A stretch of DNA of 64,000 bases. Origin: Candidatus Heimdallarchaeum aukensis (lineage in GTDB: Archaea > Asgardarchaeota > Heimdallarchaeia > Heimdallarchaeales > Heimdallarchaeaceae). Location of the stretch: the NCBI GenBank assembly GCA_021513695.1, contig CP084166.1, positions 992,001-1,056,000 of the forward strand, in the 5' to 3' direction. The position numbers and the translations under genes are program-made. Under the pieces are notes generated by a model, which saw only the letters and a list, made by a program, of their open reading frames with translations, did no database searches and was not told the DNA's origin. This document shows positions 17,948-36,031 of this stretch, in pieces (positions within the stretch are counted from its first letter, which is position 1; every line of letters starts with the position of its first letter).

Positions 17948-18841
17948 GTGAGGATTATGAGTGTTGAAGAGTATTCAGGTAAAGACAGAGTTAATTTGGA
18001 GTACCTTGTGAAAGTGATTGATGATTTAATTAAAAAAACAAATCTTATTGAGAAAATGTTAACTGATGAAAAAGAGGGTAGAATTAATCAATATAAAGAA
18101 TTAACAAAGAAAATTGAAAAAAGTGAAAAAGAAACTAAAAGTATTAACACTCAACTGTCAAATTTAAAAACAAAACAACTGTCAAGCCTTTCTAAAGAAA
18201 TTGAAGATTCAAAGAAGGCGTTATTAATTATAAAAGAAAGAATTGATGAAAAAGATAAAGATATTGAAAATCTTGAGATGAAAATTAGTGAAGTAAACAA
18301 ACTGTTTGAACAGTTTAAATCTAATCTAAACGAAGAAAAACAGATCAGAGAAGAAAAAGAACAAGAAATACAAGAGCTAAAAGAAAAGAATAGCGAACTA
18401 AGCATAAGGTTAGAAGAAAAAGAAGAAAGACTGAAACAACTTGAGAATGAATTAACAAAATTAAAAGAACAACTAGGTTCATTGAAAGATAAAAAAGAAA
18501 ATCTTACTTCTAAAATTGAGAAATTAAAGGAAGAAAAGAAAGAACTAAACGAAAAATTGAAAGAAATCGAAAAAGAATATAAAAACTACAAAGACAATAT
18601 GGAACCAGTAATTGCTCAAAATACACATATTAAAAAACTACTTGACGAGAGTTTACAAGGAAAAATATATCTTTACTTACTAGAAAAATATCCAAAAACA
18701 TCAAATATTGATGATATAGCGAAAGAAATAGACTCTCCTGCTGTGAAAATAAAGTCAGAAATACTAGCAATGCAAGAAATGGGTGTAATAAGATACAATA
18801 CTGATACAAGAGAAGTTTTTATCACAGAAAAAAAAGTCTAA
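17948..18841 (+). CDS. Coiled-coil protein with a C-terminal winged-helix domain
   Basis: A long E/K-rich heptad region is followed by a C-terminal wHTH-like segment LLEKYPKTSNIDDIAKEIDSPAVKIKSEILAMQEMGVIRYN. Confidence 0.5.
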   Translation: MRIMSVEEYSGKDRVNLEYLVKVIDDLIKKTNLIEKMLTDEKEGRINQYKELTKKIEKSEKETKSINTQLSNLKTKQLSSLSKEIEDSKKALLIIKERIDEKDKDIENLEMKISEVNKLFEQFKSNLNEEKQIREEKEQEIQELKEKNSELSIRLEEKEERLKQLENELTKLKEQLGSLKDKKENLTSKIEKLKEEKKELNEKLKEIEKEYKNYKDNMEPVIAQNTHIKKLLDESLQGKIYLYLLEKYPKTSNIDDIAKEIDSPAVKIKSEILAMQEMGVIRYNTDTREVFITEKKV

Positions 18842-20854: not shown

Positions 20855-21361
20855 TTGAAAAGTTTTATATTTGTGTGTTATTTTATTAAAGTGGCAAAGA
20901 AAAATAAAGGAAGAAGAAAAGTGATTGAGTCAGTCTATATTATTTCCCGAACAGGATTACCTTTACTTTATGTAGATTTTGTTTCACAAGAAGATGATGT
21001 AGATGCCGTAACTTTATTTTCTGGAATAATTTCAGCGATACAAGTAGCAATGGCTGAAATTGATGTAGGTGTTCCGTCATTCTTTGATACAGAAAAAAAT
21101 GAAATCTTCATGAATGTAACAGAAAAATTTGCTATTGCTGTAGTAAAAAACCAAGAACCAATAGATAGAAATGAAATGAATAAACTAATGGATCAAATTC
21201 AAACCCTAGTATCATTTGATCAAGAAGTGGAAGATTTTAGTACCATTAGTGATGAAACAAAAAATAAAATTTCCAAAAAAATAAGGGAAATAGTTAATAA
21301 CTGGGAAGACTATATTAGCGAGAGAGAAGCAACAAAAAGAATAACGGAATCATTATGGTAA
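20855..21361 (+). CDS. Roadblock/LC7 (MglB-like) domain protein
   Basis: VIESVYIISRTGLPLLYVDFVSQEDDVDAVTLFSGIISAIQVAMAEIDVGVPSFFDTEKNEIFMNVTEKFAIAVV follows the Roadblock beta-alpha-beta-beta-alpha pattern. The true start is probably an internal GTG; the track starts on an alternative codon. Confidence 0.6.
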   Translation: MKSFIFVCYFIKVAKKNKGRRKVIESVYIISRTGLPLLYVDFVSQEDDVDAVTLFSGIISAIQVAMAEIDVGVPSFFDTEKNEIFMNVTEKFAIAVVKNQEPIDRNEMNKLMDQIQTLVSFDQEVEDFSTISDETKNKISKKIREIVNNWEDYISEREATKRITESLW

Positions 21362-21378
21362 AAAGGTGAAAAATACAA

Positions 21379-22122
21379 ATGGTTGTCTGGCAAAATAAAA
21401 TTCCAATAAGTTCTATAATCTTTGAACTAGTGGTTGTTATTGCGCTAACTTTTATGGTAATAACAATTTTTGCAAGGTATTTTGCAAAAAGAAAAAAACC
21501 TGTGTTATATCTGGCTTTAGCATACCTGTTTTACGATCTTGCAACTTTAACAAGCTGTATCGGTCGGTGGTTAGGTTATTTCTCTTCAATTCCCTATACC
21601 GAGTTCTCATATACTGACTTTACAACCTTATTTGCATATGTGCTAATGGCTATAGCGAACGTATTTATTGCTGCATTTATTGACACAATATTTATTCAAA
21701 AAGGAGTAGATTTTGTCGCATTCTTTGCTATATTGAGCGGAATAATAATAGGTATGATAGTCCCTATACTGAATTTTGAATGGGGAAACATGAGATCACA
21801 TGTCTTAATAGTATCTTACCATTTAATACTTTCAATATTAATATTTCTAATACTAGCAATTGTGTCTTTAAGAGAAGCTAAAATGAATAAAAAGAAAATA
21901 GCAAAAATAGGTTTCGCTCTAATTGGAACCTATGCTATATTCATGATTCTATTATTTGTTTCATTTACATCAGATTCACTGCTTATAACTTATGTAGACG
22001 CATTTTCAAAGGGATACTCTCCTGCATATTACTTTGGATGGACACTTTTAGTTATAGGATCAATAATAGGTTATCTTGGACTAATTATGCCTAAATGGTT
22101 CGTAAAGATGCTTAAGTTATAA
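21379..22122 (+). CDS. Polytopic membrane protein (about 7 TM)
   Basis: Hydrophobic helices throughout. Starts 18 nt after the Roadblock gene. Confidence 0.5.
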   Translation: MVVWQNKIPISSIIFELVVVIALTFMVITIFARYFAKRKKPVLYLALAYLFYDLATLTSCIGRWLGYFSSIPYTEFSYTDFTTLFAYVLMAIANVFIAAFIDTIFIQKGVDFVAFFAILSGIIIGMIVPILNFEWGNMRSHVLIVSYHLILSILIFLILAIVSLREAKMNKKKIAKIGFALIGTYAIFMILLFVSFTSDSLLITYVDAFSKGYSPAYYFGWTLLVIGSIIGYLGLIMPKWFVKMLKL

Positions 22123-22207
22123 TTAAATTAAATAAAATATAAAATCACTTTTTTCTTTTTTTTTAATATTACTTCATTATTCATGAGTTGAAATTTTACT
22201 TAATTTC

Positions 22208-22412
22208 TTCAGGACTCTACCCAACCAGTCAACAAACATATCGAAAGTTGTGAGGACTGGGTTAAGAGAACATGAAAGACACAGTCTTAATTAAGTTCTC
22301 TAGGGGGTTCATCTCCTGATTCCGGGCACTCATCACTCCCACAGGGAAGACCGGGTGTCGTAGGAATGAAACCTACGTCTTTAAGCATCTAGCTCAAGAC
22401 ACTATATAAATG
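22208..22412. ncRNA. Candidate structured non-coding RNA (GC-rich island with several hairpins); class not assigned
   Basis: About 200 nt are near 50% GC inside a 470-bp intergenic gap in a ~30% GC genome. Hairpins include cgtagg-aatgaaa-cctacg, agagaac...gttctct and cagtc...gactg, plus the palindrome cttaattaag. Confidence 0.25.
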
Positions 22413-22593
22413 ATAATTGATTATATAAAGACAGCTGAAAAGTCTTGACACTCCCCCATATCGTGTAATCTTTCTAATAACTCCACAAACTAAAAATTTA
22501 GTTCTTTACGTAAAAAAGTATTTCATCTATATTTGTGTTAAGCAAAAATGGTTGATGAAACATATTCTTTATAAAAGTTAATGTGAAAGATAA

Positions 22594-23313
22594 ATGCGTA
22601 ATGTGGGTTTTATGAACAAATCATCCGTGAAAAGAAATTTAATGATTGTAAGAGAACAGGATGTTGTTGTTACTGGCGGTGTGGTTTTTATTGGAGATGG
22701 ACATACTGGCAAAACGCATACAGCTCTTAATCTTGTAAGAAATAAGGATAGATATAAGAAAACAGACTTGATCTCGAAGTCAATAAATGTAGAATTTGAC
22801 TATTTTGTTTATCAATCTAATTACCAACAGTATAAATTTACAATAAGTGCACAATTGTTTATATTTCCCGGGCAAAAAGGACGAGCGAAAAAAGGAGAAG
22901 GGTTAGCATTTGAGGATGCTCTAGACCTGTATTTTGATGTTAGAACGGTGAAAGAGGTTATTGTTCTAATACTAACTTTCAATCTTACAGATATAGCTAC
23001 ATTTCAAAACTTAGAATATTGGGTTAAAACAGCTATAGAGAATAATTTAGTCTCAGAAGCAACTAACATAATTTTGTTAGGTACTCACTACGATAAGAAA
23101 TCAAACATTGCTGTGAATGAAACAGATATTATACATGGAAAAAAATTTGTTCAAGAACAAATTGCTAATGAATTGAATATTGATTTTCCTCTGAAACAGA
23201 TCACTGAAGTGAATATATCAAATTTGACAGAAGAAGGTATCGAAAATTTAATTGGAGCGATTATAGACGCTTTTTTCAACGTTTTTAATATAGATGAGTT
23301 TAATTTAATTTAG
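22594..23313 (+). CDS. Ras-superfamily small GTPase (divergent)
   Basis: P-loop VVFIGDGHTGKTH, a switch-II-like FPGQKG and an NKxD-like LLGTHYDKK. The true start may be the internal MNKSS. Confidence 0.6.
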   Translation: MRNVGFMNKSSVKRNLMIVREQDVVVTGGVVFIGDGHTGKTHTALNLVRNKDRYKKTDLISKSINVEFDYFVYQSNYQQYKFTISAQLFIFPGQKGRAKKGEGLAFEDALDLYFDVRTVKEVIVLILTFNLTDIATFQNLEYWVKTAIENNLVSEATNIILLGTHYDKKSNIAVNETDIIHGKKFVQEQIANELNIDFPLKQITEVNISNLTEEGIENLIGAIIDAFFNVFNIDEFNLI

Positions 23314-23334
23314 AAATAAAAAAGGTAAAAAGAA

Positions 23335-26300
23335 ATGAAGTTTCAAAAGCATATAATAATCACAATAAATTTTTTATTAATTTTACAGTCATTGTTATAT
23401 ATTCAAAATATTAGCAATTCACAAAAAGATAGACAGAATATTACTCAGATTATCCCAGGAAACATTGAAAACAATCAACAAGAGAGTATTTATCATTCAG
23501 ATGTTTCCTCAACAAATGTACATACAACTCTTACTCAAGGAACAAACAAAACTTTTGGTTTCTTTACGCAAGATAGCTATGTAAATTTAGATTCTGATGG
23601 AAATGTGTTTCAATGGGAAAAGTATGATGTTGTAAAAGATACAGGTGATAATAGTGTTTATGCTGATTTTGCAATGGATTACTCTTATTCTTATACTTGG
23701 CCAAGTTCTCCTAATAGCTATGTTCCATTAATTGATATTGAAACAGGAACACAACTAGCTTCAACCTTTAGTCCTCCTTTTTCAGAGACTACTTATCTAT
23801 CAGGAAAAGTTTACTTCTTAACATATATTTCCACTTATGTATCAAGTTTTACCATTACTTTAACTCTCAGAATTCGATTGTGGTTATATAATCCTAATGA
23901 TGGAGGACTTACAGAAATTTTAACTATCGAATCTGTTCTTCCCGATAATTCTGATTTAACACAACGTGTTTATTCTTCAACTTTAGAAGATAAAGTTACC
24001 ATCCCCTCAGGTTATAGATTAAAAGTAACTTATGAAGCAAAAACGAGCAGAATAGATAGAGCTGCTTATGTTCATCTTGAAACTGGAGAATATTCAGATG
24101 GTGACCAAGTTAACTGGCAGATAAATGACGCAGAGTATTCTAACACTTATACTTTAAATGACGTTACTTCAGCTCTAGGTGTACAGTTGTATATGTATGA
24201 TGAAACATATCCTACTATTTCAATTTCTGGAGCAGAAAACAATACGATTTATTACGATACTAATGAAATAACAATCAGTACATCTGGAGCAGTAAGTAAT
24301 TCCTACAAATGGGACAGTAATTCATATACTGCTTTTGATCCTCCTGTGAATACAACTCTCCCTTCATCAACAGGTTGGCATTATTTGTATATTCAAGCAC
24401 TAGATGAATATGATAACAAAAATGAAGTAGTATACAAAATAGGCTATGAAAGTTCTAGCATAGTTTTACATAATGCAAACAATAATTCTTTAGTTCCAAA
24501 TAATTTTCTTCTTAACTTTAGTTTGTCTGGATACGATTCAGCGCAATATGCTTGGGATAGTGGAGGAAATTATACTTTTTCTGATCCTTATGACATTTCA
24601 GTACCAGATTTCTCAGGAGAGCACACACTCTATATTTATACAGTAAGCAGCTTTGGAGAAAATAAAACTGTTTATGTTTTTGAAGTTGATAACAGCCCGC
24701 CCTTAATCTCCTTAAGAGACTTAAGCAACGATACTACACAACCTACAAACAAGAAAATTGAACTGAATATTACAGATCAAACTTCAACTATTGAAGTTCT
24801 ATATAATTGGGATAATGTTGCTAATTCAACCTGGAGCCCATTAGAAGGAACAATCTACCAAACTTTTGCTCCAGATACTGATGGTTTTCATTGGCTCAAT
24901 GTATATGCAAACGATAGTTTTGGTCATATTATTGATGTACATTACAGATTTAATATTAGTTCAGACTATTTGCTGGTAGAATTAAGAACAATGATAAATG
25001 ACAGTTATTATTACGGAGGAAACACAGTTGAGGTTACGATTACAGGTACAAATGGGACAATAAAGTATCAGTGGGACTCAAATGGATTCAAAGATGGGGT
25101 AACAGTTGATTCAATCTTGTCTTTATCAGGTTCAGAATCATTACCGAAAGACCTTGGAGTGCATTATCTTACAATAATAGTTGGAGATGTAGATGACAAT
25201 CCCAAATCAACTTTGTTTAAATTTACAATTGACCAAGAAAATCCTGTAGTTTCTAATTTTGGAAATTACAATAATTCAAGATTACACAGTTCCACAATAA
25301 TTGATCTTGAAATAACAGATAATTTTACTTTAAGTAGTGAAATAGAAGCATGGGTATCAATAGATGGAGGAGGAAATATATCTTTTACGTATCCCTATGA
25401 TATTAAAATATCTTCTTTAGAAGATGGAGTTCATAATATTACTGTTTTTGCCTTTGATATTGCGCGAAATAATGTTTCTTGCTTAATAATTTTTGAAATT
25501 GATACGACAGCTCCAGAAATAGATATTGTTTCCATTCAAGGGTTAGAAGTTTCTTCTAGCGGTGTTTCATATATTCCCGGAAATGCAGCAATTGAATGCT
25601 CTTTTGTTGATGCAGACCCCGAAATTTATCACTTTTATTCATGGAATAACTCAGCTTTTACACTATTTGCTGGAAATACTTTTAATTTACCTGATACTGA
25701 TGGAAACGCAACCCTACGCATTTTAGCTAATGATACATTAGGAAATGAGAAAATTTTAACATTAGATCTTTTTATAGACACTACTCCTCCTCAATTGTCT
25801 ATACTGTTTCCTAATAACTACTCTAAAATCAATGAAGCGACACCTTTATTGTTTTTTGCTAATGATAGTGCAAGTGACACCATTTCTTCAATTTCTGCAA
25901 AATGGGACCAATTTCTAGAAGGAAAAATAGACCTTTCTCCACCTTATTTTACAATTTATTTATCAAGTCTTAAAAAACTCTATGAAGAGTTATCAGTTGC
26001 AGAGTTATATATTGATGCAAAAGATATTCTAGGAAATAATTTTACGTATATTTATTCATTTAATCTTGATTTTTCTCCGCCTTCCTACAATTTAGTAGGT
26101 GCCCAAAATAATACTTTTGTAAGAAGTGATACAATCCTTCAATTTGAAAATTTAAGTAATGACTTAATGAAGTTCGTTTATTATTGGGATTCTAATGATA
26201 TATCTATCTTAGATGATCCGTGGACTATATCAATACCAAATAATGATGGGGTACATAATCTTACAGTAATTCTTTACGATAACACAGGTGAGGGATATTA

Positions 26301-27942
26301 CCCAAATTGGGTTAAATCATTTTACACTTTTGTTGTTGATGATATTGGGATTGAAATTACTAGTCCGTCAAGTTTTTCCAATAATACAGAAGTTGGAATT
26401 GTATATAAACAATCATTTACCTTTTCTGTTGATGTCTACGATACAGCAGACAATCAAATTATAGATAATCTTAATTTTGTAATTTTAAACAATACACTGA
26501 ATCTAGAAATAGAGAATGAAACCTTAGATGGAAAAACATATACGATAACCATTCATGGTACAAATGTTGGATCAACAAGATTAATTTTTCAGTTTTCTAA
26601 GGGAAATTCGAATAAACATCAAATTGTTGTTCCTCTTACGATTGAAAAGAAAGAAGGAACAGTTTCATTGTTAGGGACAAGCGTCTTAAGCGTGATATAT
26701 GAAGAAAATTTCACTATAATACTGAATTTAGAGGATGAAAACTCTAATCTTTTAAATATTACCCGGGTGACTGTTAATGGTAGTTTAGTGAGCGATTTTA
26801 TCTATTTAGATGAATATCATGCTATACAATTTAATTATTCTTCAAGAGAAACAATAGGAAAAGGAGAATATAATCTGTTAGTTAATATTGAATCTAATTA
26901 TTACTATGGAGAAAAAATAATTGGCATTGAGGTTAAACCTATCCCTATTATTCTAAGTTTATCAGTCTCAAGTTATACTGTAATTGAAGGTTCTCAAGTT
27001 GCAATTACAGGAACTCTTACTTTTACAAATGGGACTCCGATACCTTCTATAACTCTATACTTTTCTATATATATAGTCTATAAGAATCAGTCCAATAATA
27101 ATGTCATGGCTCTGCCTTCAGAATACGGAAGTAAGGTTGTTTTCTCAGGATTAACTAATTCCTCTGGACAAGTAACGATTGCTTTTGAAATGACTTCAGA
27201 GATAGATTATATTTCAGTTGATTGTTCTTTTGGAGGGAGTAATATCTTTGACACAGTTTACTATGAAATGGAGGAATATATTTATTCTATACCTACTCCA
27301 AAACTTCCAACTTGGATATTATACACAATAATTGGTGGAAGTATTATATTGGCAGCAATAATCTCCTTTGTTGTTTATAAGCTTACTAGACCTAAACCAT
27401 TTGATGAGATATTAAATTCAATTTCTGATAATGATATCGTGATGAACATGACCCGTATCTGCCCTGGTGTTGTTCTATCAATCTTTGATCAACGCAAAGG
27501 TGCAATTCCATTAGTGTCTGATCATTCATTGGATTATAGTTACAGTGGAAGAATTAGGATAGGGCTTGAAAACTTTATGTTGAAAATTTCAGATCAAGCT
27601 TACTCTTCATTGGGCTTTGAAGAGCACCATTCTGGGCGTAGAACAGGAACAATTACTCTACCAAATGAAGGACTTGTAGGTTTTATTCATGGGATACAAT
27701 TGGAAAATAAAGCTGCGAGAGGAGGTTTTGAAAACCTTTCACTTATTGTGCTTGTAGAAAATGAGTACGGGACAATGTTACTTAGTTATCAAGAATACCT
27801 GTATCCCTTAATTGATGAGTTAATTTCCATGCTAAAAAATAAGAAACCGTTGGAGGATATTGAAGAACAATTATCGAATATACGTAGTCAAGCAACAAAA
27901 ACAGTTTTAGCTTCATTAGAATATGAAAATGCAATGTCTTAA
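23335..27942 (+). CDS. Giant receptor-like surface protein: signal peptide, repetitive Ig-like/beta-sandwich ectodomain, single TM, and a ~200-aa cytoplasmic tail
   Basis: Signal peptide MKFQKHIIITINFLLILQSLLYIQNISNS. It has many ~90-aa repeats that each contain a W-D-S-N / Y-x-W-D-S motif. The TM helix is LPTWILYTIIGGSIILAAIISFVVYKLTR, around residue 1320. The C-terminal soluble domain has Roadblock-like secondary-structure periodicity. Confidence 0.6.
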   Translation: MKFQKHIIITINFLLILQSLLYIQNISNSQKDRQNITQIIPGNIENNQQESIYHSDVSSTNVHTTLTQGTNKTFGFFTQDSYVNLDSDGNVFQWEKYDVVKDTGDNSVYADFAMDYSYSYTWPSSPNSYVPLIDIETGTQLASTFSPPFSETTYLSGKVYFLTYISTYVSSFTITLTLRIRLWLYNPNDGGLTEILTIESVLPDNSDLTQRVYSSTLEDKVTIPSGYRLKVTYEAKTSRIDRAAYVHLETGEYSDGDQVNWQINDAEYSNTYTLNDVTSALGVQLYMYDETYPTISISGAENNTIYYDTNEITISTSGAVSNSYKWDSNSYTAFDPPVNTTLPSSTGWHYLYIQALDEYDNKNEVVYKIGYESSSIVLHNANNNSLVPNNFLLNFSLSGYDSAQYAWDSGGNYTFSDPYDISVPDFSGEHTLYIYTVSSFGENKTVYVFEVDNSPPLISLRDLSNDTTQPTNKKIELNITDQTSTIEVLYNWDNVANSTWSPLEGTIYQTFAPDTDGFHWLNVYANDSFGHIIDVHYRFNISSDYLLVELRTMINDSYYYGGNTVEVTITGTNGTIKYQWDSNGFKDGVTVDSILSLSGSESLPKDLGVHYLTIIVGDVDDNPKSTLFKFTIDQENPVVSNFGNYNNSRLHSSTIIDLEITDNFTLSSEIEAWVSIDGGGNISFTYPYDIKISSLEDGVHNITVFAFDIARNNVSCLIIFEIDTTAPEIDIVSIQGLEVSSSGVSYIPGNAAIECSFVDADPEIYHFYSWNNSAFTLFAGNTFNLPDTDGNATLRILANDTLGNEKILTLDLFIDTTPPQLSILFPNNYSKINEATPLLFFANDSASDTISSISAKWDQFLEGKIDLSPPYFTIYLSSLKKLYEELSVAELYIDAKDILGNNFTYIYSFNLDFSPPSYNLVGAQNNTFVRSDTILQFENLSNDLMKFVYYWDSNDISILDDPWTISIPNNDGVHNLTVILYDNTGEGYYPNWVKSFYTFVVDDIGIEITSPSSFSNNTEVGIVYKQSFTFSVDVYDTADNQIIDNLNFVILNNTLNLEIENETLDGKTYTITIHGTNVGSTRLIFQFSKGNSNKHQIVVPLTIEKKEGTVSLLGTSVLSVIYEENFTIILNLEDENSNLLNITRVTVNGSLVSDFIYLDEYHAIQFNYSSRETIGKGEYNLLVNIESNYYYGEKIIGIEVKPIPIILSLSVSSYTVIEGSQVAITGTLTFTNGTPIPSITLYFSIYIVYKNQSNNNVMALPSEYGSKVVFSGLTNSSGQVTIAFEMTSEIDYISVDCSFGGSNIFDTVYYEMEEYIYSIPTPKLPTWILYTIIGGSIILAAIISFVVYKLTRPKPFDEILNSISDNDIVMNMTRICPGVVLSIFDQRKGAIPLVSDHSLDYSYSGRIRIGLENFMLKISDQAYSSLGFEEHHSGRRTGTITLPNEGLVGFIHGIQLENKAARGGFENLSLIVLVENEYGTMLLSYQEYLYPLIDELISMLKNKKPLEDIEEQLSNIRSQATKTVLASLEYENAMS

Positions 27943-28049
27943 CAAATTTTTTATAGAAAAATAAAACTAATGCTTTTTTTATTTTTTATTTGCACCTAGG
28001 AAAATGTTATTTATTGTTAACGAACTATTGGTATAATAGGAGAAGCAAT

Positions 28050-29462
28050 ATGTCTTATCTTTTAGATGAGTTAAAGAGGAAAAAACAAGCTGAAACCGAC
28101 GAAACCATTGATAAAATACTTCTAATGGGACTTCAAGAAGCTGGAAAAACAGCTATTAAAGATGTTGTTTTTTTTGATAAAGATCCTGAAGAAGTTGTAG
28201 AATATATGGCAACAACTCATTATCAAAGACAAATCATTGGAGACAAAAAAAAGAATTTACTTATCGATTCAGGAGGACAAGAAACTTACTGGAACGAAGC
28301 AGTAACATATTTTCGCTACTTGATTTTTTCTAATGCTAAAATCCTTATTTGGGTGGTAGATTTAACTCATCCTGAACTTTTTGATGAATCAGAAAGAAGA
28401 TTTAGCTTCACAATTAGACAATTTAAGAAAGAGAACAAAGATGGAAAGGTCTATGTTTTTTGTCATAAAGCTGATGTTGTTGAACCAGAAAAACTAGATG
28501 CAGTAGTTGAGCATGTAAAAGAACTGTTATCTGATCCCAAATTTGAGATTGAATTTAAAATTACATCAATATTCAAAAAAAATGAGTTAAAGCAAATAAT
28601 GAATAAAATTCTCGAAGAATCTTCAATTGATCAAGAACAAATAGAACTTGTCACTGATGTTGAAAAGAAAATTGAAGAAAGCCCTGAATTTGTTAAATTT
28701 CTAGAAGAACATAAAGCAGATCCACGAGTTAAAGAACTCATGGAATATATTAAACCTCAACCAAAACAATATTTACCTTCATTTGGGAAAGTAGAAGTAG
28801 ATGTGAACCTTGAAAATTATGGTATTATTGAAATCATTATACTTGATAAAGAAACATTGAAGCCAGCAATAGGAGCTTCATCACATATCATCTCTAATAA
28901 AAAACAATCATTTGAATATATTCTGGCTCTTAATTATTTTAAAAACTTAATAAAATCAAAAGAACAGAAAATTGAAGCTCTTGGAAGTACCTTTAGTTAT
29001 CCTGAAGGTGAAGTTCATGCATTGATTTTTAATTTGAAGAATAGTTACATTATAATTACCTCATTTAATGAAATAGATGAAAACATAAAAAAGGAATTAT
29101 ACAAATTTATTCTCAAATTTTCAGATGAAATGGTAAAAGAAAAATCACTCGTTAAAGAAGAAAGCATTTCTAAACCCCCTAGTATAGCAACTGAACAAAG
29201 CGTTGAAATAGAACAATCAATAGCCCAAGAAGTGAAAAAAGATGAAAAGAAGGTTTTTGCAGAAGAAGTTTCTTCAACGCAAAAAGAAACTTTAGTCAAA
29301 GAAGATGAAGAACAAAAACAAATGATAAAACAAGTCTCCTCTGAAAAAGCTAAATTAGAAGAAAAGAAAAATGGAGTAGGTTTAGATATTACAGAGAGAG
29401 ACATAACTAAAATAGCTAAATTTCTATATGATCAGCTGGATAAAGAAAAAAAAGAAGAGTGA
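28050..29462 (+). CDS. Rag/Gtr-like GTPase with a C-terminal roadblock-type domain and an acidic/K-rich tail
   Basis: G1 LLMGLQEAGKTA, G3 LLIDSGGQE and G4 FCHKAD (hKxD) follow the RagA/Gtr1 pattern. The ATG at 28050 lies after aggagaagcaat. The track ORF starts at 27990 on an alternative codon. Confidence 0.7.
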   Translation: MSYLLDELKRKKQAETDETIDKILLMGLQEAGKTAIKDVVFFDKDPEEVVEYMATTHYQRQIIGDKKKNLLIDSGGQETYWNEAVTYFRYLIFSNAKILIWVVDLTHPELFDESERRFSFTIRQFKKENKDGKVYVFCHKADVVEPEKLDAVVEHVKELLSDPKFEIEFKITSIFKKNELKQIMNKILEESSIDQEQIELVTDVEKKIEESPEFVKFLEEHKADPRVKELMEYIKPQPKQYLPSFGKVEVDVNLENYGIIEIIILDKETLKPAIGASSHIISNKKQSFEYILALNYFKNLIKSKEQKIEALGSTFSYPEGEVHALIFNLKNSYIIITSFNEIDENIKKELYKFILKFSDEMVKEKSLVKEESISKPPSIATEQSVEIEQSIAQEVKKDEKKVFAEEVSSTQKETLVKEDEEQKQMIKQVSSEKAKLEEKKNGVGLDITERDITKIAKFLYDQLDKEKKEE

Positions 29463-30686
29463 TTAAACTGGTCTACTTTTTCCAATACTTCTGTATTCAC
29501 AGTTATTGTCAAGAAGAATTGGAATCTCTCTCATTTCAGTTATACATTCATGAATTGGGTATAATTCTATAGTTGTAGTACCAAATCCTTTCTTAATTTG
29601 AATTGCATGCTCAAAATTATCAGCATTCTCTAAAGCTACCTCTAATATTGATTTATGTAATTCTCTTCCACAAATGTCACATTTAAAGTAAATTTGCTTA
29701 TTGATCTTGGTTTCTAATTGTTCTTTGTTTAATATGTTATGAGATTCGAAAAAGGTAATCAATTTATCTTTAACCTTTATTTTAGCAACAGAGATGACTT
29801 CTTCTGTTTTGAACATTTTTCTCATTTGATCACAAATTTCATGAAAAGTAGAAATCTGCTGATTTAACTGTTCTTGCGAAGAAAAAACTGAAGTAATGAC
29901 AAGGTCTTCTTCGATTTCTCTAATAAATATCCTTGAGTCACTCAAAGAAAAGACAATATAATTCAAATCAAGACTAGGTGAGTAGATCTTAACTAGTTCA
30001 GAGCGTAATCTGGAAAGATTGAGATTAACTTCTTTTTCTGGTTCAGAGTATAAAACCAAACCTTTGGAAGTTGATAGGGTTAGAAGATTTAGATTATATT
30101 CTGATACTATCTCTTGAATGTTAGAAGCTTTTGTTAGGTCTCTAGGATAAACAACAGAAAAAATTCTTTGCATTGCATCCCATATATTCTCTTCAAAGAT
30201 AGAAGTTTCATAGATTTCAGAATTGGGATACTTGCTCAACTCAAAAATATCTTTAATTGAACGTGTAATAGCAGCCCTTTTGTCAACAGGAACAACATCC
30301 ATTTTATGGGCGAAAACATAGATTCTAGCGCTAGAACCAATTTTTTTAAGATTATCCAAAGTAAGATCAAAATAATATTTAGAACGCATGATGTTAGAAG
30401 CATCAGAAATATCAACAACATAAATCAAAGCTTTAAGGTCACTAAAAGTTCTTTCAGTATATTTCTCAAAAAGCTCATTTAAATAAGAAGATTGACCTCC
30501 TACATCAACAAGATTAATAGAACTTCCTGCAAAATTGAAAAGCTTACGATTAATTCGAACTGTAGCAGGATTAAGAGAAGTTGCTTGAGGAGCAAAGCCT
30601 TCAAAAACAACTTGACGAATAGAAGTTTTACCAGATTGAGATAACCCCAGAATAACAATTTTTGATTGAAGTGAACGATCATTCAT
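29463..30686 (-). CDS. Rag/Gtr-like GTPase with a C-terminal roadblock-type domain and a zinc finger
   Basis: G1 VILGLSQSGKTS, G3 LVDVGGQ and G4 FAHKMD. The C-terminus carries CDICGRELH...HEC. It is convergent with, and abuts, the other Rag-like gene. Confidence 0.7.
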   Translation of the reverse strand: MNDRSLQSKIVILGLSQSGKTSIRQVVFEGFAPQATSLNPATVRINRKLFNFAGSSINLVDVGGQSSYLNELFEKYTERTFSDLKALIYVVDISDASNIMRSKYYFDLTLDNLKKIGSSARIYVFAHKMDVVPVDKRAAITRSIKDIFELSKYPNSEIYETSIFEENIWDAMQRIFSVVYPRDLTKASNIQEIVSEYNLNLLTLSTSKGLVLYSEPEKEVNLNLSRLRSELVKIYSPSLDLNYIVFSLSDSRIFIREIEEDLVITSVFSSQEQLNQQISTFHEICDQMRKMFKTEEVISVAKIKVKDKLITFFESHNILNKEQLETKINKQIYFKCDICGRELHKSILEVALENADNFEHAIQIKKGFGTTTIELYPIHECITEMREIPILLDNNCEYRSIGKSRPV

Positions 30687-31174: not shown

Positions 31175-32995
31175 CTCAACCAAGCCATACAATGCTATGA
31201 AGAGGATGAGACAGACATCATACACGAATCGTGGGAATCATAAAGAAGAAAAGAACTAAAAACTCTTTTCTTCACTCCACGAGAGACAAAAAGAAAGAAA
31301 GATTTCCTCCTCCTACAGGAGAGAATTTGTCCTTTCGTTTTTGTCTACTGGGACTGCAACCAATGGCTGAGCCCTAGGCAAACAGTGAAATGGGTAGAAC
31401 TGTATCTTTGACCAGTGAGGTAATCAGTGATAGTGTTTCCTTGAGGACTGAAAAGAGCACCAAGGAACTTACGAGCGATATTCATTGCTCCTGTGAGGTC
31501 AGAGTGGAAAGTGTAATTGCAAGAAGAACAATGAACTAAACCTCTTACTGGACGGACAACTTTCCTTCCACAACGAGCACAGTGAGAAGATGTCCCTTTT
31601 TCCTCTATCGTTAATATTCGGTGAGGGTCAAAACCTCTTAATATTAGTGCCCGACGGAGAAGAGTAAGAACAAGGTAAAAATTCCACTGATGAAGTTTCC
31701 TGCGAAACTTACGAGTACTTTTACCTTTCTCTTTTCCTTTCTCCTCGCGAACATGTTTAGGGTAACCTACAACGACGAAAAGGTCATACATTCGCGCATA
31801 GGTCTCTATCGTCTGCACAACCTCACTTACAAATTGGTAAATATAGGCTCGTTTAACGTTTCTATATCTTCTTCGAAGAAGACTAAGAAAACGATAAACT
31901 TGATGTTTTTTACCCGACTGGTCGTTTAAAGCTGCTTTTCTCTGAAGACGGGAAAGTTTGACTTTATATCGATGGTTGACTCTATTCCACTGTTTGGTAT
32001 GCCAGAATTTTATCTCCTTACTTGTTAATTTCTTTTTAGGGGTTAGTAACACTCCTGCAGCAGGAATGTTTATCCCTAGATCTATTCCCAGCACAGCTGG
32101 GGGGAGAGAAGAAGAATTCTCTTCTTTAGGAGGATAAAAAGAAGAAGGAAGAACTCTTAGTTGGAAATACACCCACCATTCATGTGTAGAACGTTTATAT
32201 CTTAGTTCTAAACTTTTCACCCTCCCTTTTTTTAACTCTTTCTGGTGGAAAGTGCTCATCTCTAAAGGTAACCATAACTTCTGATGATAGGAGGTGTTTC
32301 TTCTCCACGTATCTAACGAGTCTCTTATCCCCACCCACCAACGAGTGAGAGTGTTATTCTTCTCTTTAGGTAAATGGACGAGAACGAACCTCTTTGCATT
32401 AATTAGTTGTCTTCTCACTCTCTTTATTGGAGGACGAGTAGAACTGGGTTTATAACCTTGTTCGTATAATTGCACAGCTATATCTCTACATTCTTGAAAT
32501 TCGTTGTGGGAACAATAAGGGAACATTTTCTTCAGGTCGTGAGGAACAGTCTTTCTTCTCTCTTCTTCTTTAACTTTTGAAGTCGTTAGCGTCAATTCAT
32601 CTAGTTTTCCTCTATGAACTCTTATTTTCCCTTTTTTAGTTTTAGCACATATTTTTCTTCTGTTGTGATGAATTATTCTCACATACTTCTCTATTATCCT
32701 CGTGTCTCTCCCCGTTATTCTCCTTAACCTTTCCTTTTTCCTCGTCGTCAACACCTCATTCTTTATTCTCACTTTCAAGGTTTTGACGACGTCCTCCACC
32801 ATTCTTTTCCTTCCTTCTTTTCTTTTTCTGTTTATTTTTTCTCTTGTTTTTTCTTCTTATCTTTTTTTATTCTACTTTTTTTCCCTATAAAAACCCCTCT
32901 CCTCTTTCTCCTCTCCTTTCTTCTCTTTTTTCTCTCCTTCTTCCTCAACAACTGTAAATTACGTGAAAAATAGACACATGGTGACACAGGAAAAA
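31175..32995 (-). mobile_element. IS200/IS605-family TnpB-only element: leader, tnpB and a 3' flank that may encode a guide RNA
   Basis: The upstream leader on the gene strand (32803-32990 on +) is purine-rich and carries ctataaaaacccc. That sequence is homologous to the leader of the first element (cttactttttttccctat..aaaaccc shared). The 3' flank at 31175-31345 shares tctttctttcttt and gtggagtgaaga with the first element. Confidence 0.55.
31345..32802 (-). CDS. tnpB: TnpB (IS605 OrfB-family RNA-guided nuclease homolog), apparently intact
   Basis: RuvC-I is AVLGIDLGINIPAAG, the zinc finger is HCARCGRKV...CSSCNYTF and RuvC-III is HSDLTGAMNIARKF. The RuvC-II position reads VVVGYPKHV, with no Glu at the canonical position. 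The other copy has the same change, so it may be a family feature. Confidence 0.75.
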   Translation of the reverse strand: MVEDVVKTLKVRIKNEVLTTRKKERLRRITGRDTRIIEKYVRIIHHNRRKICAKTKKGKIRVHRGKLDELTLTTSKVKEEERRKTVPHDLKKMFPYCSHNEFQECRDIAVQLYEQGYKPSSTRPPIKRVRRQLINAKRFVLVHLPKEKNNTLTRWWVGIRDSLDTWRRNTSYHQKLWLPLEMSTFHQKELKKGRVKSLELRYKRSTHEWWVYFQLRVLPSSFYPPKEENSSSLPPAVLGIDLGINIPAAGVLLTPKKKLTSKEIKFWHTKQWNRVNHRYKVKLSRLQRKAALNDQSGKKHQVYRFLSLLRRRYRNVKRAYIYQFVSEVVQTIETYARMYDLFVVVGYPKHVREEKGKEKGKSTRKFRRKLHQWNFYLVLTLLRRALILRGFDPHRILTIEEKGTSSHCARCGRKVVRPVRGLVHCSSCNYTFHSDLTGAMNIARKFLGALFSPQGNTITDYLTGQRYSSTHFTVCLGLSHWLQSQ

Positions 32996-34990: not shown

Positions 34991-36031
34991 TTATGCTCTT
35001 TCACATTTATTTTTTTCATTATTTTCTACAATACATAGTTCTAGAAGTATATCATACGTTTTTATCATCTCTCTCATAGTTTTTAACATTATTGGGTAAA
35101 GACGCATAATACTATGATTCTTTGTATATTTATAATCTGAATGATAATTAGGATAACGCGAAGCACCAACATGTTTTTCCAAATTCATGCTTAAAATAAC
35201 TATATATGCAAACAGTAGTATAAGATAAAGATAACTTTCTATTTGTACTAACCAATCTTCTTTCTGAATTTGTGTGATAAATTCTTCTCTCAACATTCTT
35301 CGCTCATCAGTTTGCAATTTGATATTATATTCTTGTTCGATTGTTTGAATGACATAGTCTGTTATGCTAATGAACTCTTCTTTCACAATTTTATCAAAAT
35401 TTTCTTTTCTTATGGATTTTATTCCTTTCCTAAATAATGAAAACAGCTTGTTGTATTTAATTAATATTTCCTTTAATGTAGTGTGTTCAAGATACAGAGT
35501 TTCTTCTGATTTCCTTTTTTGCTCATAATCACTCAAATATTTATCAATTGCTTCTATAATGCTTAAAAATCCTTCTCTTTGGTTATCATTAGAATAATCA
35601 GCTAAAGATTCATAGAGATCTTTTAGTTTTTCGAAGAAGAATTTAGTAAAAGTATGTCCAACTTTTATAAGCCGTTCAGTTTGACACAGTCCAGTAAGTA
35701 GAAGTAGTGATTTTCCTAATTTCTCAACAGATTGTTGGAGGAAGAAAATAGACTGTGCATATAGTTTCTTGTGATATAGAATTTTTGAAGCTCTTAAATC
35801 CTCTTCAGCAGTATCTAACAGTCCTAAAGCTGATATTAAATCTCTCTTTTCTGGTGGGATCTCATACTGTGATCCATATTTTAATTGCCATATTAATTGC
35901 CTTTTGATATCTTCTATATCTGTTTCTTGTAATGCAATTTTGTCATTATTATCATTCATTAAATAGCACTGATGGTTAATATTTAAATAATTAATGGCAA
36001 CTATTATCATAATGCAATAAAAATCGAGCAT
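34991..36031 (-). CDS. HEPN-domain protein
   Basis: ASKILYHKKLYAQSIFFLQQSVEKLGKSLL is a HEPN N-terminal helix, and ERLIKVGH is an Rx5H motif. The likely true start is the internal MNDNNDK at about 35959. There is a C-terminal hydrophobic segment. Confidence 0.5.
   Translation of the reverse strand: MLDFYCIMIIVAINYLNINHQCYLMNDNNDKIALQETDIEDIKRQLIWQLKYGSQYEIPPEKRDLISALGLLDTAEEDLRASKILYHKKLYAQSIFFLQQSVEKLGKSLLLLTGLCQTERLIKVGHTFTKFFFEKLKDLYESLADYSNDNQREGFLSIIEAIDKYLSDYEQKRKSEETLYLEHTTLKEILIKYNKLFSLFRKGIKSIRKENFDKIVKEEFISITDYVIQTIEQEYNIKLQTDERRMLREEFITQIQKEDWLVQIESYLYLILLFAYIVILSMNLEKHVGASRYPNYHSDYKYTKNHSIMRLYPIMLKTMREMIKTYDILLELCIVENNEKNKCERA

Follow-up and report, generated by a model that had tools for sequence, protein, structure and literature searches.

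What can a giant single-pass surface protein do in an archaeon when small GTPase genes lie on both sides of its own gene? The question is raised by a locus of Candidatus Heimdallarchaeum aukensis, contained in a 64,000-nucleotide stretch of DNA (the window). An earlier note on this DNA had described six open reading frames (A to F) as a signalling gene cluster, and all six were recovered where it had placed them. The spacers between the genes are 17 bp (A-B), 471 bp (B-C), 21 bp (C-D) and 107 bp (D-E), while the convergent genes E and F abut (0 bp). The features of the locus, in window coordinates, are as follows.

20855-21361, + strand: Gene A, Roadblock-like; Robl_LC7 is matched below threshold only (Pfam, E=0.0067, 16.6 bits; cut-off 23)
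22594..23313, + strand: Gene C, divergent Ras-superfamily small GTPase, 239 aa (233 aa from the NCBI start); Pfam Ras 2.5e-6, above cut-off
23335..27942, + strand: Gene D (K9W45_04185), 1535-aa single-pass type-I surface protein (ORF, hydropathy)
23335..23412, + strand: signal-like hydrophobic segment at the N-terminus, residues 1-26 (Kyte-Doolittle maximum over residues 5-26, after MKFQKH)
23545..24207, + strand: membrane-distal jelly-roll head domain, residues ~71-291
24208..27294, + strand: stalk of Ig-like beta-sandwich modules, residues ~292-1320 (repeat alignment)
27310..27384, + strand: single transmembrane helix, residues 1326-1350, then K-L-T-R-P-K-P (hydropathy maximum 2.38)
27385..27939, + strand: cytoplasmic tail, residues 1351-1535, in which a longin domain of the FLCN/SMCR8/NPRL2 class comes after two short helices
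27499..27504, + strand: G1389-A1390, position of the family "GP motif" at the start of beta-2; translation FDQRKGAIPLVS
27718..27720, + strand: R1462 (loop between beta-4 and beta-5), candidate arginine finger; motif A-R-G-G-F-E-N; translation NKAARGGFENLS
28050..29462, + strand: Gene E, Rag-family GTPase, 470 aa from a conserved Met; Pfam Gtr1_RagA 1.1e-23
29463..30686, - strand: Gene F, RagA/Gtr1-like GTPase, 407 aa, convergent with E and with no spacer; Pfam Gtr1_RagA 2.2e-32

The product of Gene D is identical to UJG41670.1, which is annotated as a hypothetical protein and, in UniRef, as an Ig-like domain-containing protein. Its full-length homologues (1400–1620 aa) occur in Heimdall-group MAGs only. 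The signal peptide, single transmembrane helix and ~200-aa tail reported earlier correspond to an N-terminal signal-like segment, one later transmembrane helix, which is located at the same position in all homologues, and a tail of 185 aa. The Lys/Arg residues immediately after the helix and the ectodomain's enrichment in N-x-S/T sequons (39 versus 22.7 expected from shuffles) fit an orientation with the ectodomain outside and the tail inside the cell. The ectodomain had been read as ~1300 aa of repeated modules, each with a W-D-S-N signature. Residues ~71-291 are not repeats but form one jelly-roll head, whose likeness to carbohydrate-binding jelly rolls is only generic. The stalk comprises ~9 repeats of ~90 aa and then more divergent Ig-like domains; a Y-x-W-D/N motif is present in six repeats, and exact W-D-S-N in three of these. 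The Pfam matches of the receptor itself are weak (Big_13, Big_3_5 and Big_5), and the precomputed matches of its homologues are Big_13, Big_3_3 and Big_7.

The tail is predicted by AF2, with a pLDDT of 92.5, to adopt the longin fold (beta-beta-alpha-beta-beta-beta-alpha-alpha). Of the roadblock/longin-like fold that had been suggested for it, the folded state and the superfamily survive, with longin in place of roadblock; the confident prediction speaks against both disorder and a roadblock fold. The nearest solved structures are a Lokiarchaeal longin, followed by FLCN, FNIP2/Lst4, NPRL2 and C9orf72-SMCR8, and the structural matches include 6nzd, 8dhb and 7t3b (FLCN-FNIP and GATOR1). Folliculin is also the only Pfam family that recurs among the tails (15 of 30, best E 7e-4). 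In the Pfam search of the tail it is not significant (13.9 bits against a cut-off of 23.3), the hhalign comparison with FLCN gives non-significant E-values of 0.1–0.2, and FLCN is absent from the profile search of PDB sequences with the tail. Given the model, the tail is a longin domain of the FLCN/NPRL2/SMCR8 class and a candidate for the GAP type.

Two conserved sites bear on the GAP type. At the GP motif most homologues have G-P, and four copies of the family, that of the window among them, have G-A; the motif is kept in 94 of 96 distant representatives, and its placement in the tail agrees with the published description (PMC12290439). R1462 is invariant in the close family (46 of 46 copies) and is kept in 93 of the 96 distant representatives. 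It lies opposite R164, the arginine finger of FLCN, in two independent hhalign runs with non-significant scores; because the similarity to FLCN is not significant, the equivalence of the two residues rests on register and loop position rather than on three-dimensional superposition. The combination of a GP motif and an arginine finger is reported for GAP longins only and is absent from non-GAP longins (PMC12290439).

The flanking of the receptor gene by small GTPase genes on both sides, which the earlier note had pointed out, is stable among Asgard (Heimdallarchaeial) genomes. The order C-D-E-F was seen again in ~30 Heimdallarchaeial MAGs, with neighbours beyond the module varying between lineages. 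The conserved module has four genes rather than six: Ras-like C as its first gene, one to three tandem copies of receptor D, Rag-like E and the convergent RagA/Gtr1-like F. Among loci with room for the respective gene, C lies immediately 5´ of the receptor in 21 of 28, E immediately 3´ in 31 of 40, and F follows E in all 23. All 55 Rag-like genes in 41 related loci are located no more than two genes from a receptor gene or receptor remnant. Co-conservation, on which the proposal of a cluster had been staked, holds for this core. It does not extend to the MglB/Roadblock and membrane-protein genes (A and B), which are absent from every other cluster-bearing locus; their homologues form a conserved two-gene pair of their own, which other genomes carry at a different place; one of these is a MAG that has its receptor loci on other contigs.

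Genes E and F both encode Rag-family proteins. The start of Gene E was placed by conservation at M21 (position 28050) of a frame that is open from 27990, and its product consists of a G domain (G1 GLQEAGKT, G3 DSGGQ and G4 HKAD, read directly), a middle domain that is conserved and an extension that is variable and rich in Glu/Lys. Its profile scores are 1e-15 for Gtr1 and 1.5e-11 for RagC. Gene F scores 2e-30 with Gtr1, 2e-28 with RagA and ~3e-15 with RagC; its G domain (GLSQSGKT, DVGGQ and HKMD) is followed by the start of a Rag-type C-terminal domain, with the alignment extending to residue 268 of S. pombe Gtr1, and by a conserved Cys/His-rich C-terminal module in which C336, C339, H379 and C381 are invariant. 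E and F align in the G domains only, and a Rag-type roadblock domain is not demonstrable in the C-terminal part of E.

In the nutrient sensing of eukaryotes, longin domains of the folliculin type switch Rag GTPases off, and both FLCN-FNIP and GATOR1 are longin-domain GAPs for these GTPases. We judge the chances somewhat better than even that C, D, E and F constitute one functional module, in which a longin tail controlled by the ectodomain docks E and F and, most likely, stimulates their GTP hydrolysis; the receptor would most likely be a membrane-anchored Rag GAP or Rag docking platform. With the jelly-roll head on its Ig-like stalk facing the environment, the tethered tail, which probably dimerises (either with another copy of itself or with a tandem paralogue), would dock E and F, which probably pair like eukaryotic RagA-RagC. 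Hydrolysis would be stimulated through R1462 together with the neighbouring G-P/G-A motif. A change in the ectodomain (ligand, surface contact or clustering) would then alter the pairing or accessibility of the tail and thereby the nucleotide state of the Rag pair, with Ras-like C as a third, obligatory component.

Several lines of evidence argue for this Rag GAP reading: the longin topology and Folliculin as the sole recurrent family with regard to fold, the invariant arginine and the GP position at the start of beta-2 with regard to catalytic-type motifs, and the adjacency of E, F and C despite varying flanking genes with regard to linkage. The tail is also more conserved than the ectodomain (55% versus 34% identity), which points to selection on the tail. 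Independent support for a tail-Rag partnership comes from more distant relatives, of which an exhaustive profile search yielded ~110 (~140 representatives of the tail family in all). Rag-family genes flank five of the seven informative distant loci, whose tails are only ~20% identical and whose proteins (1107–4285 aa) carry unrelated LamG or DUF2341 ectodomains. Most of these loci contain one Gtr1_RagA gene of ~300 aa and one of 520–740 aa; at L048, a 597-aa Gtr1_RagA protein is paired with a 207-aa small GTPase. Against the Rag GAP reading stand the G-A of the window's own copy, the absence of a DENN domain after the longin and of an FNIP/NPRL3-type non-catalytic partner longin from the module, the lack of a demonstrable Rag-type roadblock domain in E, and the non-significant similarity to FLCN. 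Receptor paralogues at six loci (L009, L017, L024, L028, L038 and L040) lack E and F downstream, although at L040 a short gene for a Rag-like G domain lies immediately upstream; the distant loci L042 and L043 have no GTPase neighbours; and F, being transcribed convergently, is not in one operon with D.

Alternatively, the tail may have no catalytic role and serve the Rag-like pair as a membrane anchor or scaffold, resembling Ragulator, whose roadblock-fold dimers tether Rags to the membrane, or the inhibited lysosomal FLCN-FNIP. The conserved arginine would then be structural or serve binding, and the GTPase cycle would be regulated elsewhere, e.g. by protein C or intrinsic hydrolysis. We consider this unlikely, as the arginine is invariant across the ~140 representatives down to 20% identity, within an equally conserved A-R-G-G-x-E-N loop, and forms with the nearby G-P the signature that is reported to be confined to GAP longins (PMC12290439).

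An inside-out arrangement, in which the Rag- and Ras-like GTPases act through the longin tail on giant adhesin- or surface-layer-like proteins, shares the tail-Rag partnership and differs in causal direction alone. The protein would not be a sensor; its insertion, clustering, turnover or cytoskeleton linkage would be controlled, as in the polarity and trafficking control by MglA-MglB or longin-domain adaptors. The same transmembrane helix and tail are found at the end of proteins that range from 300 to 5809 aa and carry many different ectodomains (LamG, DUF2341, Ig-like), some family members form tandem arrays of giants without adjacent GTPases, and the ectodomain is adhesin-like, being repeat-rich, sequon-rich and fast-evolving, with a head that resembles carbohydrate-binding domains only generically. 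The conserved gene neighbourhoods, however, keep no trafficking machinery genes in the module, and we regard this arrangement as unlikely.

Very unlikely, in our view, is a tail that acts on Ras-like C or on unlinked Arf-related GTPases instead of the Rag pair. The analogy would be with C9orf72-SMCR8, a structural neighbour of the tail and a longin GAP that acts on Arf and Rab proteins. No gene is coupled to D more tightly than C (21 bp, same strand), and small Ras/Arf-like genes occur near L048 and L050. In contrast, C-type genes are missing from three of the five Rag-bearing distant loci, and it is the Rag-family genes that the superfamily has in common. All 18 members of the Gene C family match Ras in Pfam, with Rab21/Sec4 as the closest solved relatives (E only ~1e-3), an intact P-loop (GDGxTGKT) and an invariant insert, GxGLAFEDA. 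C may not be a conventional switch, because its G3 (x-M/F-P-G-Q, without Asp) and G4 (G-T-H-x-D/E rather than N-K-x-D) are degenerate. Fortuitous adjacency or mere shared ancestry is hardly credible: a single archaeal class supplies all the close loci, and many of the MAGs are related, but the four-gene core persists amid differing flanking genes and remains adjacent in the rearranged locus L037, none of the 255 other flanking genes in the 41 related loci is Rag-like, and Rag adjacency recurs in the deeply diverged relatives.

Folliculin-FNIP (yeast Lst7-Lst4) is a longin-DENN GAP complex for RagC/D (Gtr2), and GATOR1 (NPRL2-NPRL3-DEPDC5; yeast SEACIT) is a GAP for RagA/B (Gtr1). In contrast to the former, the receptor module has neither a DENN domain nor an FNIP-type partner, its sequence similarity is below the Pfam threshold, and its longin, with a putative GAP role, is the anchored tail of a giant surface protein, whereas FLCN is recruited from the cytosol. 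In contrast to GATOR1, it is a single membrane-anchored polypeptide without a DEPDC5-like component or the NPRL-specific C-terminal domain. Ragulator and SLC38A9, a roadblock-fold scaffold and a lysosomal membrane sensor, hold the Rag heterodimer and communicate with FLCN; there, sensor, anchor and GAP are distinct proteins located at an internal organelle, whereas here a transmembrane helix and a GAP-type longin share one chain, presumably at the cell surface. Plexins are receptors that cross the membrane once and combine an Ig-like/IPT ectodomain with a cytoplasmic Rap-GAP whose arginine-finger activity depends on receptor dimerisation. The likeness would be one of mechanism only (large modular ectodomain, one transmembrane helix, putative arginine-finger GAP), since the RasGAP-like and longin folds are unrelated and there is no homology.

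The receptor had also been called an undescribed family. This applies to the whole receptor and its synteny, of which the literature searched contains no mention, public annotation being "hypothetical" or "Ig-like domain-containing"; it does not apply to the domain class, as a 2025 study (Traffic, PMC12290439) reports 15 Asgard longins of the FLCN/SMCR8 type that carry both a GP motif and an arginine finger. These belong to the same taxon (Heimdallarchaeia), share the domain class and both motifs, and may include members of the receptor family; that study mentions neither membrane anchoring, giant ectodomains nor gene neighbourhoods, the word "transmembrane" being absent from it, and names no GTPase partner. 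It raises the question of whether their partners are ArfR or Rag GTPases. The receptor-Rag linkage across dozens of genomes offers a testable pairing of the kind that the field says is missing. The Lokiarchaeal Roadblock-Longin protein (longin dimer, PDB 8yqg), 15–18% identical to the tail in its longin, is fused to a roadblock domain rather than to a transmembrane helix and ectodomain. As in the bacterial MglA-MglB system with which the locus had first been compared, in which a roadblock GAP acts on a Ras-like GTPase, a prokaryotic small GTPase would be under a putative regulator of the roadblock/longin superfamily.

All six ORFs named in the earlier note are present in the window, which is AT-rich (26–34% G+C) and carries loci K9W45_04170 onward of the closed, 3.08 Mb genome of this Asgard archaeon, Ca. 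H. aukensis. The genes and sites referred to are:

20855-21361 (+), gene A, Roadblock-like protein of 168 aa
20855-22122 (+), the pair formed by A and the membrane-protein gene B
22594-23313 (+), gene C, Ras-like GTPase
23335-27942 (+), gene D, 1535-aa single-pass surface protein (the receptor)
27718-27720 (+), codon of R1462 in the cytoplasmic tail of D
27990-29462 (+), gene E, Rag-family GTPase
29160-29462 (+), C-terminal ~100 residues of E, Glu/Lys-rich and of low complexity
29463-30686 (-), gene F, RagA/Gtr1-like GTPase
29463-29750 (-), Cys/His module of F, residues ~330–407

In public annotation, D goes by 'hypothetical' or 'Ig-like domain-containing', E is likewise 'hypothetical', and F has the label '50S ribosome-binding GTPase'; Pfam has no match for membrane protein B or for D. 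In a scan for sigma-70 promoters and terminators, which is ill-suited to archaea, the counts equalled those of shuffled sequences.

Hydropathy agrees with the receptor layout previously read for D, with a putative signal peptide, one TM helix and a cytoplasmic tail. An N-terminal signal-like hydrophobic segment lies at residues 5–26, and a single later TM helix (residues 1326–1350) is followed by basic residues and a tail of 185 aa (residues 1351–1535). The ectodomain is enriched in N-glycosylation sequons (39 observed vs 22.7 expected) and contains a jelly-roll head (residues ~71–291) and about nine modules of ~90 aa, with more divergent Ig-like domains C-terminal to them; Big_13, Big_3_3 and Big_7 are matched in D homologues. 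The repeats themselves stand, but the W-D-S-N signature ascribed to each of them is found exactly in three alone, and a Y-x-W-D/N motif is present in six. Conservation is far higher in the tail (median identity 55%) than in the ectodomain (34%).

The tail has 35 close relatives of 55–60% identity, all of which are the C-terminal ends of ectodomain-TM-tail proteins from Heimdall-group MAGs. The AF2 model built with their alignment (pLDDT 92.5, pTM 0.88) displays two short helices followed by a β-β-α-β-β-β-α-α arrangement, which is the longin fold (tail numbering: strands 28–35 and 39–47, helix 61–76, strands 86–92, 97–107 and 115–125, helices 126–151 and 156–184). A Foldseek search with the tail independently agreed, with hits to the Lokiarchaeal longin domain dimer 8yqg (1.5e-6), to one chain from the FLCN GAP complex in its active state (3.6e-4) and to one from a GATOR1 complex (6.9e-4). 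The nearest structures are longin subunits of GAP complexes, not SNARE, TRAPP or adaptor longins. Where the earlier note had offered a roadblock/longin fold, the topology and the nearest structures agree on longin and rule out roadblock.

The tail profile, searched exhaustively with HMMER against 1.84 billion representative proteins, returned 138 representative clusters at 50% identity. The window's subfamily accounts for 28 of them; the other ~110 are distant, with tails only ~20% identical. By source name, the distant ones belong to Heimdallarchaeota, Hodarchaeales, Kariarchaeaceae and unspecified 'Promethearchaeota'. A motif and TM census covered those with a length of 280 aa or more (96 distant representatives). 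The TM helix is located 195–235 residues from the C-terminus in 87 of the 96. These proteins reach 5809 aa (21/96 exceed 2000 aa), and their ectodomains, which extend up to ~5600 aa, are unrelated to that of the window's receptor (LamG, DUF2341).

Two sequence hallmarks of GAP longins were followed through the superfamily. The arginine finger of these domains (FLCN R164, NPRL2 R78, SMCR8 R147) sits in the loop that leads into the final strand of the longin sheet. The corresponding β4/β5 loop of the tail, between strands 97–107 and 115–125, contains R1462 within the motif A-R-G-G-F-E-N, and this residue is kept in 46/46 close family copies scanned and in 93 of the 96 distant representatives. 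Two hhalign runs with human FLCN (a sequence 100% identical to 6ulg_L residues 1–276) place the invariant tail Arg opposite FLCN R164, with scores that are not significant; the agreement is one of register only. Judged by sequence position and conservation, R1462 counts as the putative arginine finger of a GAP longin. The second hallmark, a G-P at the start of β2, has been reported to be specific to GAP longins and to occur in some Heimdallarchaeial longins as well (PMC12290439, 2025). The family consensus at the end of the β1/β2 loop is F-D-Q-x-K-G-P-x-P, and G-P is present in 94/96 distant representatives; the window's own tail reads G-A at this position. Tandem receptor copies all retain both the Arg and the G-P.

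Folliculin (PF11704) is the sole Pfam family that recurs among the tails (15 of 30), always below threshold, with a best E of 7e-4; the window's tail reaches 13.9 bits vs a gathering score of 23.3. Two profile searches of PDB sequences with the tail did not find FLCN and gave nothing significant, and these searches together with the two hhalign runs furnish no sequence-level proof of FLCN homology. In FLCN, FNIP, SMCR8 and C9orf72 the longin is followed by a DENN domain. D contains none, as its chain ends 30 residues past the start of the last longin helix and leaves no room for it. Longins of this GAP class work as heterodimers with a longin that is not catalytic, and no partner longin is kept in the C-D-E-F module of related loci. 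Because the Pfam threshold is missed and the DENN domain is absent, the tail can safely be said to work like the GAP longins and to belong to their structural class, and is not called a folliculin orthologue.

Both E (Gtr1_RagA 1.1e-23, 84.3 bits) and F (2.2e-32, 112.8 bits) lie far above the Pfam cut-off of 22 bits and contain GKT, DxGGQ and HKAD (E) or HKMD (F) motifs. Their closest solved relatives are Gtr1/RagA, and both are genuine Rag-family GTPases. F is clearly RagA/Gtr1-like on profile comparison (2e-30 to Gtr1 vs ~3e-15 to RagC), and its alignment reaches residue 268 of S. pombe Gtr1, within the Rag C-terminal domain. E, at 1e-15 to Gtr1, is the more diverged of the two Rag paralogues. 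The two G domains are 29% identical, and the paralogues are always adjacent (23/23). No similarity was detected beyond the G domain of E in the profile comparisons; when a Rag-type C-terminal domain was sought there by comparison with F, the G domains alone aligned. E continues into a conserved middle domain and then a variable Glu/Lys-rich extension, with orthologue lengths of 470 to 686 aa and a conserved short motif at the C-terminal end (consensus I-x-F-S-A-x-D-I-K-x-F-A-x-F-L). At its own C-terminus, F bears four invariant residues (C336, C339, H379, C381) and finishes with a conserved E-Y-R...S-R-P; this module may bind zinc. We know of no eukaryotic Rag with a comparable Cys/His module, and the ~300-aa Rag genes beside distant family members do not have one.

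C is matched by Pfam Ras (2.5e-6), as are 18/18 members of its family above the cut-off. The P-loop is intact, the family's switch II (G3) reads x-M/F-P-G-Q without the Asp, and G4 reads G-T-H-x-D/E. The window's copy has F-P-G-Q, a guanine-specificity motif G-T-H-Y-D and, after switch II, the invariant insert G-E-G-L-A-F-E-D-A. C may thus be no conventional switch, with unusual nucleotide specificity and switch behaviour. Its P-G-Q switch II had pointed to an MglA-like GTPase, which was not supported; the nearest solved relatives are Rab21, Sec4 and Rab33 (E ~1e-3).

To define the gene neighborhood, one genome per species was scanned. The scan gave 38 loci in 30 MAGs, almost all of which bear the label Heimdallarchaeota; three further loci were added by exact look-ups (41 related loci in all). 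The recurrent order is C(+), D(+, in one to three tandem copies), E(+) and F(-), with gaps in the window of 21 bp (C-D) and 107 bp (D-E). Among loci with room to judge, E is directly downstream of the receptor in 31/40, F follows E in 23/23 and C is directly upstream of the receptor in 21/28. Rag-like genes of the related loci lie within two genes of the receptor gene or its remnant in 55 of 55 cases, and none occurs among the 255 other flanking genes. Outside the core, the lineages show at least three different gene contexts; in one rearranged locus (L037) all four core genes are still adjacent. The cluster described in the earlier note is therefore conserved in part: the C-D-E-F order recurs across Heimdallarchaeial MAGs, but A, presented there as an MglB/Roadblock member, and B are found in 0/41 related loci. 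Since A and B are absent from these loci and are paired elsewhere, the module consists of four genes, not six; a gap of 471 bp also separates B from C.

Several related loci depart from this arrangement. C, the receptor and F are all fragmented and E is intact in L001/L002 (9337-13131) and L041 (8839-12491), and the module is therefore decaying as a unit in these three loci. The receptor of L003 (5862-10615) is split into overlapping ORFs of 1377 aa and 204 aa, by a frameshift or a sequencing error, and L022 (5744-10576) has C and a split receptor without Rag genes. Most genomes also contain 'solo' receptor paralogues (L009, L017, L024, L028, L038, L040), which keep the Arg motif and have no downstream E/F; L040 has just a 198-aa Rag-like G-domain gene directly upstream. 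Several solo copies read G-A, as the window's copy does, not G-P. A typical module is also present in L011 (JBHLQZ010000141.1), from a MAG labelled 'Candidatus Thorarchaeota', with a tail 60% identical to the window's, like Heimdall copies; faulty binning or labelling may account for this, and not a true occurrence in Thorarchaeia.

Eight loci of distant tail relatives were inspected, one on a contig too short to judge. In five of the eight, Gtr1_RagA-family genes are immediately beside the giant gene.

Rag-family neighbours of giant genes in distant loci
L047: Gtr1_RagA-family proteins of 738 aa and 302 aa
L048: Gtr1_RagA-family protein of 597 aa and a small GTPase of 207 aa
L049: Gtr1_RagA-family proteins of 302 aa and 703 aa
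L050: Gtr1_RagA-family proteins of 388 aa and 316 aa, two more nearby
L052: Gtr1_RagA-family proteins of 564 aa and 300 aa

The adjacency persists where the rest of the proteins has changed, and no other observation argues as strongly for a joint function of the tail and the Rag-like GTPases. No GTPase genes lie within 8 kb in L042 (1-15683) and L043 (1-14605). In each, three genes for longin-tailed surface proteins stand in tandem, and one of these proteins measures 8856 aa. Arg and G-P are both retained in the first two tails; the third protein (~1000 aa) has a recognisably related tail that lacks both, V-G-G-G-Q-G replacing A-R-G-G-x-E-N. Arrays of motif-bearing and motif-less tails recall FLCN-FNIP and NPRL2-NPRL3, in which a catalytic longin is paired with a non-catalytic one.

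FLCN-FNIP and GATOR1 both act as GAPs on Rag GTPases, by means of an arginine finger in a longin domain. By analogy, the membrane-tethered tail most likely docks E and F, which probably form a pair, and accelerates their GTP hydrolysis through R1462. The tail would probably act as a dimer, and engagement of the ectodomain would modulate tail pairing, so that signals would pass inward. A less likely alternative is a tail that serves as a non-catalytic anchor of the Ragulator type. Somewhat less likely again, the direction could be inside-out, the GTPases controlling giant adhesins. That the true substrate is C, the receptor's usual upstream neighbor, or Arf-related proteins is unlikely. A receptor tail acting as a GAP on E and F is the reading we prefer. 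The protein architecture, the fold class, the conserved motifs and the gene linkage with its recurrence in distant relatives are observed, whereas binding, catalysis, dimerisation of E with F and the direction of signalling are inferred.

The domain class itself is known: Asgard FLCN/SMCR8-type longins with the GP motif and the Arg finger were reported in 2025 (PMC12290439), and Asgard Rag-like GTPases are well documented. Whether the Heimdallarchaeial GP-motif longins partner Arf-related or Rag GTPases was posed there as an open question (PMC12290439). Small-GTPase genes of the cultured Lokiarchaeon are generally outside operons with roadblock or longin genes, and according to a recent paper the pairing of GTPases and regulators cannot be read from its operons. 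In the literature searched, which covered neither the PMC12290439 supplement nor one 2025 Nature Microbiology paper, we found no report of a GAP-class longin that ends giant single-pass surface proteins on their cytoplasmic side, of such proteins as a large superfamily, or of their genomic coupling to Rag-family GTPase pairs; on that literature, these three features appear to be new. The conserved module (K9W45_04180–04190 and the adjacent F; proteins UJG41669–UJG41672) supplies candidate partners from a single closed genome, namely the longin tail, the Ras-like protein and both Rag-like proteins, and makes the question of longin-GTPase pairing testable. If the pairing is true, no longin GAP-Rag system would have been described in a prokaryote before, and a prokaryotic transmembrane receptor would for a first time be connected to a small-GTPase switch of eukaryotic type. 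The many giant Asgard surface proteins now called 'hypothetical' would gain a function, and the pairing would bear on the origin of the Rag machinery upstream of mTORC1 and of its membrane association. Eukaryotes use the Rag/longin-GAP switch on lysosomes for nutrient sensing. We tentatively propose, with more doubt than confidence, that the Heimdallarchaeia hold a 'receptor-GAP' superfamily of these 138 clusters in which a Rag pair of its own is under the direct control of each FLCN-type longin tail, and that the lysosomal switch began as cell-surface transmembrane signalling in the archaeal ancestor, whose GAP (now soluble), membrane anchor and transmembrane sensor later became separate.

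The excluded genes A and B form a unit of their own. A matches Robl_LC7 below threshold (16.6 bits vs 23, E=0.0067), and the 247-aa B has at least six hydrophobic segments. A 148–168-aa Roadblock-like protein and a 247–263-aa membrane protein are encoded as a conserved, tightly spaced pair in several Heimdallarchaeaceae genomes (17 bp apart in the window; L044 10001-11234, L045 4574-5807, L046 5712-6936), including a MAG whose receptor loci sit on other contigs. The pair is independent of the GTPase module and could represent a further roadblock/longin system tied to the membrane.

The surrounding genes (ABC transporter, beta-helix protein, HAD hydrolase, CN hydrolase, HEPN protein, TnpB) were also considered as parts of the system and set aside as unrelated and not conserved with the module. 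They include an 825-aa right-handed beta-helix (NosD-like) protein at 12147-14624 (+) and a HEPN-domain protein at 34991-36031 (-); a 297-aa coiled-coil protein at 17948-18841 (+) is likewise unrelated. A 485-aa TnpB/Cas12f-like protein (31345-32802, -; Cas12f1-like_TNB 1.3e-8), ~660 bp past F, is a mobile-element gene present at this position in this genome only.
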